Shown here: positions 745 through 32,865 of the stretch, piece after piece | Numbering within the stretch: position 1 is the first letter of the stretch | Layout of the letters: each line of letters starts with the position of its first letter | Origin: Candidatus Nomurabacteria bacterium | GTDB lineage: Bacteria > Patescibacteriota > Minisyncoccia > Phycocordibacterales > UBA9973 | Assembly: GCA_943354645.1 (NCBI GenBank) | Contig: CALRCO010000003.1 | Span: forward strand, 1-32,865 | Direction of reading: 5' to 3' | Length of the DNA stretch: 32,865 nt | The notes under the pieces: model-generated | Told to the model about the DNA's origin: nothing | Seen by the model: the letters and a program-made list of their open reading frames with translations, nothing else | Database searches by the model: none | Translations under genes and position numbers: made by a program

Positions 745-938
745 ATGTGTGTCGGAAACGGACTTGCCCGCAGCTAAAATTTCGCCGACGCTCAATTTTG
801 CTTGGGCACCGCCTCGTGATTTTTCGAAACGAAAAATAACACTCCGGCGTTCAAGTCCGCACGCATACAATGCAGATTGCATGCTTCGACCGCGCATATG
901 AAAAATCACCACAATTGTGGTGATTTTTCATATGCGCG
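745..938. repeat. tRNA-3'-associated structured element, copy 1 (tRNA-Asp)
   Basis: 766-858 aligns ungapped (72/93) to 17483-17575; 48-bp perfect palindrome 891-938 runs into the tRNA acceptor; inverted copy of the T arm GTTCAAGTCC at 849-858. Confidence 0.85.
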
Positions 939-2684: not shown

Positions 2685-4394
2685 CTATTGAATTACTATT
2701 TTCGTCACACTATACGGACGCACTACCATACTTGTTGGATTTTGTATGGATTGTAATGCGGTGAGGGTAACAGGAGAGAATGTTCCAGTGAAATTCTTTT
2801 CTCCATAACTTGAAGAAAGAGCAGATCCATATATTGATTGTGACTGCACTGTTTTACCCGCTGGGACAATTGATGCATTATTTACTTTAATATCTTGTAC
2901 TGCAATTGATTGTCCTGTCCAGTTTGAAACAATGTAGGTGAGTTTATTTGTTGCTGTGTCTTTTGCACCAAGGACTTGCACATCAAGTTGGTCAATGCCT
3001 GTTGGGATTGTGAGAGTGTTCGTATCGAGTAGTTTATGGTTACCGTCAAATACTGATGCAAGTAATTCAAATACATGCATGGTGGTGCGTTTTACCATAC
3101 TGGTGCCAATTTTTTGCACGTTACCGACATCATCTGAAGATGTATCGTACTTACTGATTGCTGCACGATTGTCTCCAACACCATTTAAGTAATACATTGA
3201 TTCAACAACATTATTATGTGCTGCATTGTATTTCATCACCCCCGTGATAAAGTCTGTGGTGAATAGCGCTTGTGCTATGGTGTTGTTTACTGAGAATGCA
3301 CTAAACGTATTTGGGACGACACCATTATTGTCGGTACCCCATGAATTTACCACTATTTTATATCCGGGATACGCACTCATGCGAGCGTCTAATTTTGAAG
3401 GAATGTTACTCGTATAGTGGTGTGTTATTGTTTTGAAACAATCAAATCTTACAGCAGAATCTCCTGTGGTGCAGGTTTGGTCGACATTTTCATCGTTGTC
3501 CATAACCATATAAATACCCGCATAATCAAACCATTTATTTGCCCCCGTGTTTGAGTTTATAAGTGCTGTGTTCCATGCAGTAATAAATGGGTCCTTGGCT
3601 GCATTTAATGGATTAAGAAGTCCAACAACAACTTTTACATCTGGGTGAGCAGATTTTACGCCAAGACTCACTGCTTTTGCACGAGTGATATATGTTTGCG
3701 GATCATTATTAAGGACAGGGCGAACTTTGTTGTCAGAAATTTCAACACCGGCGAGCCATTTATCAACATTGAGTCCTTTTGCTTTTGCGTCTGCGATCAT
3801 ACCAACGTTTTCTGTAATTGCGAGTTGATTACTTGCATCATCCGTTGGGAGAAGTGCAATACTGCCACCACCAGCTTTTTGTGTGCGGATATTACCAAGT
3901 GCGTACAATTTTGCATCACTGCCGAATGCTTGCATAAATGCAGTAAATCGATCCCAATGTTTCCATGTGGTTGTTGCTGTTTTATTTGCCCAATTATTCA
4001 TGGCTGGGTCAGTGTTTCCGGCAGAAGCGAGTTCACTTGGGAGCATTCCTAAATAATTACCTTGCCAATGTGACCAGTTCATTGCTGCTAATAAATTAGG
4101 GTCATAGGAATGTACTCCAGACGCTTTCCATATATCAACGAATCCTGGTTGTTGATCAAAGACAGGAAATGCGCCAGTAAGAGTTGCTCCCATAAAGTAA
4201 TGGTTTATTTTAGGGCCGATAGTTGCTGGAGTGATTACGACTTGACCACCATTATTGTTATTGTGACGCCACGGAAAGAAAACAAGTCCTGAAAGAAATC
4301 CAGGATTACTTGCCGTGTTTGCATATAAAAATAGTCCAAAAAACAAAAAGACTCCGCAAAAAAAGACACCCTTAGTAACATTTTTCACTGACAT
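2685..4394 (-). CDS. secreted or anchored protein, glycoside-hydrolase clan-A-like (barrel plus C-terminal beta-sandwich)
   Basis: N-terminal hydrophobic segment; WLAGVE resembles W.IGNE; C-terminal VVRPYSVTKIVIQ resembles GH30/39/51-type termini. Family call is inference. Confidence 0.55.
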   Translation of the reverse strand: MSVKNVTKGVFFCGVFLFFGLFLYANTASNPGFLSGLVFFPWRHNNNNGGQVVITPATIGPKINHYFMGATLTGAFPVFDQQPGFVDIWKASGVHSYDPNLLAAMNWSHWQGNYLGMLPSELASAGNTDPAMNNWANKTATTTWKHWDRFTAFMQAFGSDAKLYALGNIRTQKAGGGSIALLPTDDASNQLAITENVGMIADAKAKGLNVDKWLAGVEISDNKVRPVLNNDPQTYITRAKAVSLGVKSAHPDVKVVVGLLNPLNAAKDPFITAWNTALINSNTGANKWFDYAGIYMVMDNDENVDQTCTTGDSAVRFDCFKTITHHYTSNIPSKLDARMSAYPGYKIVVNSWGTDNNGVVPNTFSAFSVNNTIAQALFTTDFITGVMKYNAAHNNVVESMYYLNGVGDNRAAISKYDTSSDDVGNVQKIGTSMVKRTTMHVFELLASVFDGNHKLLDTNTLTIPTGIDQLDVQVLGAKDTATNKLTYIVSNWTGQSIAVQDIKVNNASIVPAGKTVQSQSIYGSALSSSYGEKNFTGTFSPVTLTALQSIQNPTSMVVRPYSVTKIVIQ

Positions 4395-4926: not shown

Positions 4927-5382
4927 ATGCCAAATCCTAAAAAACCTAGACCAAAATGTTTGTTTTGTGGAGAGGAAACATTCCGACCCGGGTATATTTA
5001 TTGCAGTAATATTTGTCAGCAAAAGTATCAGCGTCAAGGATATCTTAGTAAGTGGAAAAAAGGAGAAGTGAAAGGCTTGCAAAGTATAGGAATCGTTTCG
5101 ACTTCGATTAAAATATACTTGCGAGAAAAATATAATAACAAATGTTGTTTGTGTGGGTGGTCAGAAACCAATTTAAAAACGGGATTAGTTCCATTGGTTG
5201 CCGATCATATTGATGGTAATTGGCGCAATAATATTGAAAGTAACTTACGATTACTTTGTCCAAATTGTGATTCGTTAACTCCCACATATGCAGCATTGAA
5301 TAAAGGAAATGGAAGAAAAAATCGAGCAATCAGTAAAAGAGTAAAAGAAGGACGTTTGTTAATGATAAAGAAGCCAAGGTAG
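4927..5382 (+). CDS. HNH endonuclease with zinc-binding CxxC motifs (151 aa from ATG 4927)
   Basis: CLFC..YCSNIC, CCLCG, LVADHIDGNWRNN..SNLRLLCPNCDS. Confidence 0.9.
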   Translation: MPNPKKPRPKCLFCGEETFRPGYIYCSNICQQKYQRQGYLSKWKKGEVKGLQSIGIVSTSIKIYLREKYNNKCCLCGWSETNLKTGLVPLVADHIDGNWRNNIESNLRLLCPNCDSLTPTYAALNKGNGRKNRAISKRVKEGRLLMIKKPR

Positions 5383-17422: not shown

Positions 17423-17464
17423 AAAATGATTCAGAATCTGCCTATTGTCGATTTTCTTTGCAAA

Positions 17465-17641
17465 GCTGGGAGACTAGGGGTCGCCCGCGACTAAAACTTT
17501 TTCGTCAAAAAGTTTTGTCTGGGCACCGCCTCACGATTTTTCGAAGCGAAAAATAACGTTCCGGCGTTCGAATCCTAGTCGCGAGTGAAGCAGTTCACTC
17601 GCTTCCCGCAGCAAAATAAGCATCGCTTATTTTTGCTGCGG
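17465..17641. repeat. tRNA-3'-associated structured element, copy 2 (tRNA-Gln)
   Basis: Core 17483-17575 homologous to 766-858; inverted tRNA copy GTTCGAATCCTAGTC (17566-17580) and CCCGCAGC (17605-17612); degenerate direct copy 17465-17478. Confidence 0.88.
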
Positions 17642-27833: not shown

Positions 27834-28334
27834 ATGGCAATTACTAAAGAAAAAAAGAAAGCGCTTATCGGAGAACTCGATACGTTGCTTGGTGCAAGTG
27901 ATTCGCTCGTCTTTGTCTCTTTCAACAAATTAACGGTGAAAGATGCAAATGAGCTCCGTCGCATGCTCTTGGCAGTAAATGTCGGCTACAAAGTTGCAAA
28001 GAAAACTCTTTTGAAGCGATCACTCGCGAACAAAAAAGTAGAAGGCACCCTCGCTGACTTGCCAGGAGAAATCGGTGTCGCATTCCTTAAGGGAGGCGAA
28101 GATATCACCGCTCCAGCTCGAGAAGTGTACAGTTTCTTGAAAGCTCATAAAGATGTCGTTCGCATCGTCGGCGGTATCTTTGAAGGAGTATATAAAGATG
28201 AGGCTGCGATGATGTCGATTGCGACAATCCCACCTCGAGAAGTCATGTACGCGCAGTTTGTCCAACTTATCAATTCGCCTATACAGCGATTTGTTATCGG
28301 TTTGAATCAAATCGCTGTAGTCAAAAGTTCTTAA
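27834..28334 (+). CDS. rplJ: 50S ribosomal protein L10 (166 aa from ATG 27834)
   Basis: MAITKEKK, LTV....LRR, YKVAKKTLL, IATIPPRE; precedes rplL. Confidence 0.95.
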   Translation: MAITKEKKKALIGELDTLLGASDSLVFVSFNKLTVKDANELRRMLLAVNVGYKVAKKTLLKRSLANKKVEGTLADLPGEIGVAFLKGGEDITAPAREVYSFLKAHKDVVRIVGGIFEGVYKDEAAMMSIATIPPREVMYAQFVQLINSPIQRFVIGLNQIAVVKSS

Positions 28335-28417
28335 AGTTATAAAGTTCATAAAGTATTCCGAATCGCGATTGCTTTATAACTTTACAAACTTTTAACATTA
28401 TAACTAATAAATTATTT

Positions 28418-28804
28418 ATGGAAGAAACAAAAACAATCCCAGCAAAATTCAAGGACATCATTTCAACTGTTGAAACTATGTCAGTCGCTGATCTTCACGA
28501 ACTCGTGCAGACACTTGAAGCACACTTTGGTGTGTCAGCAAATGCAGTTGCCGCAGCTCCAGCAGGAGCAGCAGCGGGTGCAGCAGAAGAAAAAGATGCA
28601 TTTACTGTTGTCTTGGCCTCTGCAGGTGAACAAAAAATCGCCGTTATGAAAGTTATCAAGGAAGCTCTCGGTTTGGGTCTTAAAGAAGCAAAAGACCTCG
28701 TTGATGGCGCACCTATGACTATCAAAGATAATGTGAAGAAGGCAGAAGCAGAAGACATGAAGAAGAAGATTGAAGAAGCGGGAGGAAAAGTCGAGTTAAA
28801 GTAA
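28418..28804 (+). CDS. rplL: 50S ribosomal protein L7/L12
   Basis: FGVSA, Ala hinge, [30 protein letters not shown]. Confidence 0.98.
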
Positions 28805-28840
28805 AACAAAAAATCCCACTTCGGTGGGATTTTTTGTTTT
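28803..28840 (+). terminator. rplL terminator with UUCG loop
   Basis: aaaacaaaaaatcccac-ttcg-gtgggattttttgtttt. Confidence 0.85.
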
Positions 28841-28843
28841 CTG

Positions 28844-28987
28844 TCGACTTTTCCTCCGGCTTGGGAGGTGGTCGAGGAACGGTAGTTCCTCGTGTAGGAG
28901 AGCAGCGAGTCCTCGAGCGTTGAGAACTGTGGGTTCTCAAGGAGGAGCATAGCGACGACGGTTGGTGGGAAAGTGGAATTAAAGTAA
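28844..28987. repeat. rplL-3'-associated structured element (antisense copy, hairpins, synonymous direct copy)
   Basis: 28844-28862 is 18/19 complementary to 28776-28794; 28964-28987 re-encodes GGKVELK*. Confidence 0.85.
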
Positions 28988-29000
28988 TCAATCTGCTAAT

Positions 29001-29031
29001 ACAAAAAACTTCCATATTGGGAGTTTTTTGT
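29001..29031 (+). terminator. second terminator after the duplicated rplL end
   Basis: acaaaaaacttcca-tat-tgggagttttttgt. Confidence 0.75.
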
Positions 29032-29081
29032 TTGTTTTTGTCTAGTTGCATGGAGACTCACTTCTCTTTATACTACTGTTC

Positions 29082-29708
29082 ATGATAGAAACTCTAGGAA
29101 AGCTGTTCGGATCGCAAGCACGAGTGAAGGTAATGCGCCTTTTCATGCAAAATCCTGAAACGCCGTTCGATGCAAAAGAAATTGCAAAGCGTTGTCGTAT
29201 CCGTATTGGTGAAGCACGTAAAGAACTCAATCTGTTGCTCGGTGCAAATTTTCTTAAGAAGAAAATTTTTTCAAAAATCATTGAAGGTAAACGAAAATCT
29301 CGTCGCGTGCAGTTTGTTGGAGGATTACTCAATCAAGAATTTGAATATTTAGATGCGCTTCGAGTCCTTGTTGTTGAAGCAAGTCTCATCCAACCAAAAT
29401 ATCTCATTCGTAAACTTCGTCCATCTGGCAAATTAAAATTGGTTATTATGGCGGGTGTCTTTACGCACAATCCAGAGTCCCGACTTGATCTTTTAGTTGT
29501 CGGCGATAATCTTCGTCGCAATGTGATTGAAACAGCAGTTCGCGCTATTGAAGCAGAAACCGGAAAAGAGCTCGCGTATGCAGTATTTGAAACATCTGAA
29601 TTCCAATATCGCATTGATATGTACGACAAGCTCGTCTGTGATGTCCTCGAATTCCCCCATGAAAAATTGATTGATTTGATTGGGGTAAGCGAGAAAATTA
29701 GAATTTAG
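29082..29708 (+). CDS. winged-HTH plus nucleotidyltransferase-like protein (208 aa from ATG 29082)
   Basis: LFGSQARVKVMRLF...EIAKRC..ARKELNLL HTH; AGVF......RLDLLVVGD; promoter TTGCAT-17-TATACT 7 nt before ATG. Confidence 0.75.
   Translation: MIETLGKLFGSQARVKVMRLFMQNPETPFDAKEIAKRCRIRIGEARKELNLLLGANFLKKKIFSKIIEGKRKSRRVQFVGGLLNQEFEYLDALRVLVVEASLIQPKYLIRKLRPSGKLKLVIMAGVFTHNPESRLDLLVVGDNLRRNVIETAVRAIEAETGKELAYAVFETSEFQYRIDMYDKLVCDVLEFPHEKLIDLIGVSEKIRI

Positions 29709-31981: not shown

Positions 31982-32865
<884 letters not shown>

Follow-up and report, generated by a model that had tools for sequence, protein, structure and literature searches.

A probable small protein-less mobile element behind rplL in a Candidatus Nomurabacteria genome, and its relatives at conserved gene termini of Patescibacteria

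The DNA analyzed here, referred to as the window, is the forward strand of contig CALRCO010000003.1 (32,865 nt), which belongs to a Candidatus Nomurabacteria genome of 573 kb in 52 contigs with 88% completeness (G000). Our subject is a putative small element behind rplL, the gene of ribosomal protein L7/L12, where the end of the gene occurs twice in sense and once in antisense around a folded core. The gene was found in 37 of the 41 genomes compared (40 relatives and G000), with 58–95% identity in the relatives, and is preceded by rplJ (Pfam Ribosomal_L10) and the L10 leader (Rfam RF00557). The parts of the locus are listed below.

28418–28804, plus strand: rplL, the target gene, an open reading frame (ORF) of 128 codons
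28781–28804, plus strand: copy 1, the working rplL end, last seven codons and stop (GGKVELK-stop)
28803–28840, plus strand: terminator hairpin T1, a perfect 17-bp stem with a 4-nt loop and a T run, itself the loop part of a long hairpin
28844–28862, plus strand: antisense arm, reverse complement of rplL 28776–28794 (18/19), pairing with copy 1 across T1
28858–28947, plus strand: type A core, a two-hairpin motif of ~90 nt (86.4 bits, E = 2.3e-24 with the covariance model R1, built with this copy included)
28941–28963, plus strand: linker, common to the rplL-associated type A copies of G000 and of two relatives, G016 and G023
28964–28987, plus strand: copy 2, the rplL end repeated in sense, 20/24 identical (83%) and still encoding GGKVELK-stop
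29001–29031, plus strand: terminator hairpin T2

The stem arms of T1 (28803–28819 and 28824–28840) are 100% complementary, and those of T2 lie at 29001–29014 and 29018–29031. The antisense arm belongs to a 31-nt inverted repeat (28776–28806 and 28832–28862) with T1 inside, and thereby lengthens the T1 stem. The core consists, in order, of helix 1 (28873–28880 with 28885–28892), a conserved purine stretch (28897–28905), a small variable hairpin and helix 2 (28920–28927 with 28933–28940), its two GC-rich hairpins spanning 28873–28892 and 28920–28940. All four differences between copy 1 and copy 2 are synonymous and fall at third codon positions. The region folds much better than shuffled versions of itself (z = -7.9; none of 200 shuffles as good). 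As controls for chance, the 6/6 residue match of copy 2 to the last five codons and stop was reached in none of 200 shuffles, and the match score of the antisense arm, 16, in none of 100. The first-pass annotation of the window, made from the letters alone, had described the 20/24 copy with its third-position changes, the 18/19 antisense copy, the hairpins and the terminators, and all of them, coordinates included, were confirmed on the sequence. No ORF was found within the 183 nt of the rplL element. Neither a start codon nor a usable frame upstream of copy 2 is common to the rplL copies of G000, G016 and G023, and copy 2 as an independent mini-ORF was rejected for lack of a shared start codon. 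The antisense arms behind rplL in G016 and G023 track the rplL codons of their own genomes.

Two other explanations were considered. Assembly artefact and excision were checked on Logan contigs from public lake-water runs. The contig of one run, possibly the source sample, covers 28300–29400 with 0 differences. Three further runs yielded 0-difference contigs across rplL, terminator, antisense arm and core (28633–28886, 28752–28903 and 28693–28866), and two of these three (X7 and X8) also yielded such contigs across core, copy 2, terminator and the next gene (28919–29250 and 28936–29400). Contigs from other samples bridge both junctions, the same layout is present in other genomes, and an assembly artefact was rejected. 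No RNA run was listed among the sequencing runs. The second explanation, a tandem duplication of rplL without any recurring core, was also rejected, as only the last 8 codons of the gene recur and the core recurs elsewhere.

A search of G000 with the intergenic stretch led to a related piece on contig C36, and motif searches added those on C2 and C22. In an alignment of the four copies both hairpins show compensatory changes, and R1 was built from these four. Since the window copy helped to build the model, its own match follows by construction and the independent support for the family, called type A, comes from the other R1 hits. The window copy carries the two helices with the purine stretch between them and matches R1 at full length. 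R1 detected 5 full-length copies in G000. Of 61 scanned genomes from the same order, 19 (G000 included) gave matches, up to 8 each, in a scan with stricter filters in which a genome without a match is not proof of absence. The reading of the stretch as an inserted small element, with a core that recurs elsewhere, gained support. A degenerate pattern scan over one genome per species gave, among the matches listed, many records bearing the names Parcubacteria, Saccharibacteria, Kaiser-, Taylor-, Lloyd-, Campbell- and Moranbacteria, and also matches in G+C-rich genomes that are due to chance. In 43 Patescibacteria loci, chosen by record title among the matches listed (120 stretches), 44 hits were confirmed with R1. 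When 73 copies are aligned, pairing is kept in 98.6% of cells and compensatory change is seen at 13 of the 16 pairs, in an alignment fitted to R1 and so somewhat favouring the structure; none of 500 shuffles reached any of the measures, and slid controls paired at 30–73%. Rfam gave no match over the core, neither with gathering scores in the window nor, for four loci, with a threshold of E ≤ 5, and a known RNA family was rejected as the identity of the core.

For 75 copies, 35 from relatives and 40 from named genomes, the flanks were compared. Most share one layout: a conserved terminus, an optional terminator or spacer, the antisense copy, the core, a linker, the sense copy and often a second terminator. 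For thirty of the 75, the 3' end of a tRNA gene is no more than 160 nt away, with at least 12 amino-acid types represented; at these sites the arm is complementary to the T-loop and to the stem after it, and the distal repeat usually runs from the last T-loop bases to the discriminator base. Protein genes targeted at the 3' end are rplL (G000, G016 and G023), rpsI, rpmG and one unnamed gene. The 5' targets comprise the first 11–18 codons of fusA and other translational GTPase genes, with the element on the opposite strand, and a glyS-like gene with the element on the same strand. By a simple ungapped score a direct repeat is present in 46 of the 75 copies, those on C36, C2 and C22 having short repeats or none by this score, and in 36 of the 46 the antisense arm lies over the left edge of the repeat, typically spanning from 7 nt before that edge to 4–20 nt after it.

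The same slots hold elements of other kinds. Downstream of rplL, 8 of 29 loci in relatives carry a recoded copy of the last five codons and stop that retains 5 or more of the 6 residues (none of 200 shuffles in each case), and the cores between the rplL-end copies are of at least four unrelated-looking types; ~10 of the 29 loci have a plain terminator only. Behind rplL in two relatives, G008 and G045, the antisense arm follows directly after the stop codon and forms a ~20-bp hairpin with the stop in its loop. The rpsI ends give the same picture of several element types, including tandem arrays, and the ends of rplL and rpsI are hot spots for several element types. One array lies behind rpsI in G016 (C1, ~146740–147030, locus L245), where a type B-like element precedes a type A element and the antisense arm of the distal element matches an rpsI ending with a Ser codon unlike the present one of the host. 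Another, in a Moranbacteria record (L137, 4984–5205), consists of a pair of successive type A cores behind tRNA-Ser. Within the window, elements with a second core type, type B, are found at two tRNA genes:

745–933 (approximate), minus strand: type B element 3' of tRNA-Asp, with antisense arm and degenerate sense copy
17455–17634, minus strand: type B element 3' of tRNA-Gln, with antisense arm and degenerate sense copy

The tRNA-Asp element (window 796–858) matches the tRNA-Gln element at 86%, and the type B core has 5 copies in G000 (two on C3, one each on C39, C15 and C9). The likeness of the rplL locus to two tRNA elements with a different core, pointed out in the first-pass annotation, was real, and the general class of elements suggested there for conserved gene 3' ends was recovered at tRNA genes, rplL, rpsI and rpmG and extended to GTPase 5' ends in many Patescibacteria.

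The divergence of the two sense copies was analyzed in 19 copies at protein genes, with repeats located by nucleotide similarity and frames set by the real genes. The 197 codons compared comprise 105 identical, 68 synonymous and 24 non-synonymous ones, and the base differences at codon positions 1, 2 and 3 number 21, 16 and 84 (84/121 at the third), in 19 loci that are partly non-independent, several rpsI copies being related. Among the differences are switches between codon families, such as Ser TCA versus AGT, Leu TTG versus CTA and Arg AGA versus CGC. Neutral decay of a dead copy is disfavoured because its changes would spread evenly over the three positions, and pairing with the antisense arm does not explain the divergence because it would not favour third positions. 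Past coding selection on both ends, first proposed from the single rplL case, is borne out by this larger sample. The simplest reading of these sequences is that the two sense copies would be gene ends of different lineages, one native and one imported; they would differ mostly synonymously, like orthologous coding sequences, because one of them came from an earlier host of the element.

Evidence of movement came from comparison with G001, a genome of the same genus. The copy at C22:5157–5381 is absent there, the flanks abut, and the empty site holds a single 6-nt word, which flanks the element in G000. At tRNA-Gln the core is of type B in G000 and of type A in G001, with the same degenerate distal copy and flank. 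Behind rplL, G001 has an identical T1 and a nearly identical T2 and downstream flank, and between them the place of the core is taken by a 151-codon ORF (L045 978–1430, minus strand) that matches nothing in Pfam or NCBIfam. This ORF, which may be an alternative cargo of the site, is preceded by what could be a truncated remnant of the arm. Empty sites were not definable for the C36 and C2 copies, their flanks being non-collinear in G001.

Altogether, a family with a conserved fold, a range of targets, a recurrent arm geometry and coding-type divergence of its sense copies has been observed, with one case of presence and absence and with turnover of core types. We consider it likely that 28781–28987 is one copy of a family of small (~100–250 nt) protein-less mobile elements which reside at conserved gene termini of Patescibacteria. 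The family is best read as small integrative elements, non-autonomous ones, for which a hairpin made of a target copy serves as the attachment site; in its effect the element resembles an integrative element, restoring the gene end into which it breaks. The account given in the first-pass annotation is largely supported. Its proposal of an insertion into rplL supplying a replacement 3' end stood as far as the small inserted element is concerned; for the origin of the working end the evidence is split, C22 pointing to copy 1 and rpsI to copy 2 as the part that arrived with the element.

The integration could proceed as follows. A small circle, possibly single-stranded, would carry an attachment site S beside its own inverted copy A (S–loop–A–cargo), and the S:A hairpin would serve as a double-stranded mimic of the target. 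A single crossover within S with a similar chromosomal sequence would then give the integrated order that is observed, the full terminus staying on the side of the gene, which would remain intact, and the other copy being left outside. The recombinase may be the genome's own Xer-like enzyme, one provided in trans or part of the recombination system of the host. The clean C22 case fits this model because A pairs there with the element-borne part after the 6-nt repeat.

Several observations weigh against a mobile element of this kind. The travelling copy is contradictory between loci. That copy 1 is element-borne is favoured by the match of the antisense arm to copy 1, and by the clean C22 insertion, where the arm pairs with element-borne sequence. 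That copy 2 is element-borne is favoured by rpsI, where distal copy and linker are shared across genera, almost unchanged between G000, G024 and two named genomes, whereas copy 1 and the arm agree with the respective host; correction of the arm within the hairpin after integration could reconcile the rpsI pattern. The repeat length, from 6 to ~60 nt, fits no fixed staggered cut. Within the genus an empty rplL allele was not found (G001 examined), and the Logan contigs contained no excised form, circle junction or deleted rplL allele, and no joints. No candidate enzyme tracks the element across the 61 genomes, and the sole tyrosine recombinase (PF00589) in the 88%-complete G000 is Xer-like and lies on another contig. 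The IMG/VR viral contigs gave 6 pattern matches, none confirmed by R1, with a pattern that catches only 16 of 35 test copies; phage origin was rejected on this negative, which is weak. Finally, a working RNA could account just as well for the strong conservation that the core shows across phylum-level lineages.

The last point leads to a cis-acting RNA switch in the 3' untranslated region of rplL, in which the arm would pair with either the rplL end or copy 2, sense translation or read-through and control either how stable the transcript is or whether it terminates at T2. The arm indeed has two possible pairings that exclude each other, terminators stand on both sides, the core fold is conserved and of an RNA type, and behind rplL the layout is kept in three genera, the arm changing along with each rplL end. 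We nevertheless regard such a switch as unlikely: at GTPase 5' ends the element is opposite in orientation to the target gene, there are more than 12 unrelated targets, tandem arrays and presence or absence between sister species, pairing alone leaves the excess of third-position differences (84/121) unexplained, and the three rplL copies share no mini-ORF with a start codon. An attenuator or leader regulator of fixed position was rejected, as the elements lie 3' of tRNA and ribosomal protein genes yet also at GTPase 5' ends on the opposite strand.

The target list of the elements equals that of tyrosine-integrase elements in streptococci. The passages cited from PMC4701971 describe streptococcal integrative and conjugative elements (ICEs) with tyrosine integrases that integrate in the 3' ends of rplL, rpsI, rpmG and tRNA genes and generate 12–54 bp repeats. 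Like these ICEs, the IMEs (integrative elements that can be mobilized) and the remnants described in those passages, the elements reported here use the same gene termini, rplL included, form direct repeats of the target end and leave the gene intact. Unlike the ICEs of that source, which are kilobases long and encode an integrase, they measure 100–250 nt and hold no ORF; an antisense target copy by the proximal repeat, a folded core and synonymous differences between the repeats set them further apart from what the cited passages of PMC4701971 describe. An integrase-bearing ICE, IME or cis-mobilizable element (CIME) was rejected for the rplL copy, since its 183 nt hold no ORF and the sole PF00589 hit of the 88%-complete G000 is Xer-like; direct repeats of the target end are present (24 nt, 20/24), and an enzyme acting in trans may be involved.

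Scars of prophages, ICEs or IMEs would be a related explanation, with attL and attR left after deletion of the inside, as in a CIME, and with the core as leftover DNA of the attP arms. Target list and repeat lengths match those of tyrosine-integrase elements as far as the cited passages of PMC4701971 give them, the 6-nt repeat at the clean C22 insertion has the size of a recombinase overlap region, and the rplL slot of G001 holds an ORF as cargo. Against this, the copies are uniformly small, the core is base-paired with compensatory changes across distant lineages, and attL/attR scars do not predict the antisense arm present in 36 of the 46 repeat-bearing copies; no integrase was seen beside any copy inspected by eye, the 88%-complete G000 has only the Xer-like recombinase, and no core was confirmed in viral contigs. 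We find this origin improbable. Very unlikely is an origin without dedicated machinery, by template switching at terminator hairpins (fold-back copying giving the arm) and spread by natural transformation and homologous recombination with the conserved terminus and gene body as homology arms: the antisense arm directly extends the terminator palindrome, G008 and G045 have the ~20-bp hairpin with the stop codon in its loop, repeat length varies from 6 to ~60 nt, no enzyme association was found, and the most conserved sequences, the best homology arms between lineages, are targeted, but neither the specific folded core conserved across lineages nor the precise right-hand junction at the T-loop end in most tRNA copies is explained.

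Enzymes of other known systems were compared with the distribution of the core. Of the 19 genomes with the core, 7 had a reverse transcriptase (RT), versus 20 of the 42 without it, and 11 had a Y1 transposase (Y1_Tnp), versus 21 of the 42; neither G023 with 7 core copies nor G027 with 6 had a Y1 hit. A retroelement or a repeat linked to a diversity-generating retroelement was rejected for want of an RT association, and the REPIN/RAYT system for want of a Y1 association. TnpB/omega-RNA, IS110/bridge-RNA and serine recombinase systems were rejected, G000 containing no TnpB domain, no IS110 transposase domain and no serine recombinase, respectively. The guides of bridge RNAs are, moreover, much shorter than the arms of the elements. 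A MITE (miniature inverted-repeat transposable element) was rejected, given that the arms differ by target, the repeats range from 6 to ~60 nt and none of TnpB, IS110 and serine recombinase occurs in G000. Like MITEs and REPINs, which are non-autonomous and mobilized in trans (REPINs by RAYT), the elements are small, multi-copy, protein-less and rich in hairpins, and lie outside genes near terminators; unlike them, they have inverted ends copied from the target, repeats of unfixed length and no association with Y1. The tRNA-linked repeats in tRNA operons of E. coli are partial copies of the tRNA 3' end downstream of the gene. To our knowledge, these have no antisense arm, folded core, protein-gene targets or spread across phyla.

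The features of a folded single-strand attachment site were found at the locus, namely an inverted copy beside the site and the order sense, loop, antisense, cargo, sense. As in the CTXphi-type integrative mobile elements exploiting Xer (IMEX) and the integron attC sites, in the parts of PMC3442271 and PMC4792948 that are cited here, the inverted repeat could fold a single strand into a double-stranded attachment site. Exchange of one strand in the CTXphi manner, as outlined in those parts, followed by replication would give sense, loop, antisense, cargo and sense, an order we derived in this analysis. Unlike the CTXphi and integron systems as presented there, which use dif or attI with Xer or IntI, the hairpin here copies many different gene termini, those of tRNA genes, rplL and rpsI among them, and not an identified dif site. 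The literature search, with supplements and subscription journals outside its scope, found no published description of the elements.

Going further, and only tentatively, the elements may form a retargetable protein-less class: a circle of ~150–200 nt, probably single-stranded, with a target-copy hairpin as its site, which a change of the arm alone could redirect to another target, and with a core that would recruit a host recombinase, for example an Xer-like one. If the arms set the target, this would be a natural minimal sequence-addressable insertion system without a protein of its own, and its enzyme would be worth finding. Patescibacteria have genomes of ~0.6 Mb and are thought to be poor in mobile elements; here, several families of tiny elements occupy the most conserved gene ends and turn over between genera. 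In annotation, recoded copies of gene ends and displaced gene starts can be misread as pseudogenes or as errors of assembly. Rfam lacks the conserved core, which is a candidate for an RNA family, and the synonymous differences between the copies record the exchange of gene ends between lineages, a direct means of tracing horizontal transfer among organisms that do not grow on their own.

Some further genes were noted in passing. G000 encodes a single RAYT-like Y1 transposase (contig C46, L202 1243–1899, plus strand; Pfam Y1_Tnp above the cut-off, NCBIfam REP_Tyr_transpos below it), and some relatives have as many as 6 genes of this kind. In G045 a Y1 transposase-like gene (L207, contig C15, 49142–49438) is located ~1.7 kb upstream of the rplL with the 20-bp stop-codon hairpin, which may be a coincidence. 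Contig C20 of G000 (L201, 3913–7521) carries a 353-codon RT gene beside a gene for a small helical protein and two similar stretches of ~110 nt (2709–2981 and 3043–3255), and resembles a diversity-generating retroelement. Between two tRNA-Thr genes of the window there is a 151-codon ORF (4927–5382, plus strand) with Cys pairs and an H..N..N pattern, HNH-endonuclease-like by eye and without a Pfam match at E ≤ 0.01. The gene after rplL and T2 is not rpoB but one of 220 codons (29046–29708, plus strand) with no Pfam or NCBIfam match; in many relatives its start (M..LGK.FGS..R/KVK..R.F), judged by eye, is found again behind rplL. At its end the window cuts off a 16S rRNA gene, of which it contains the 5' part (31982–32865, plus strand; Rfam, 795 bits).

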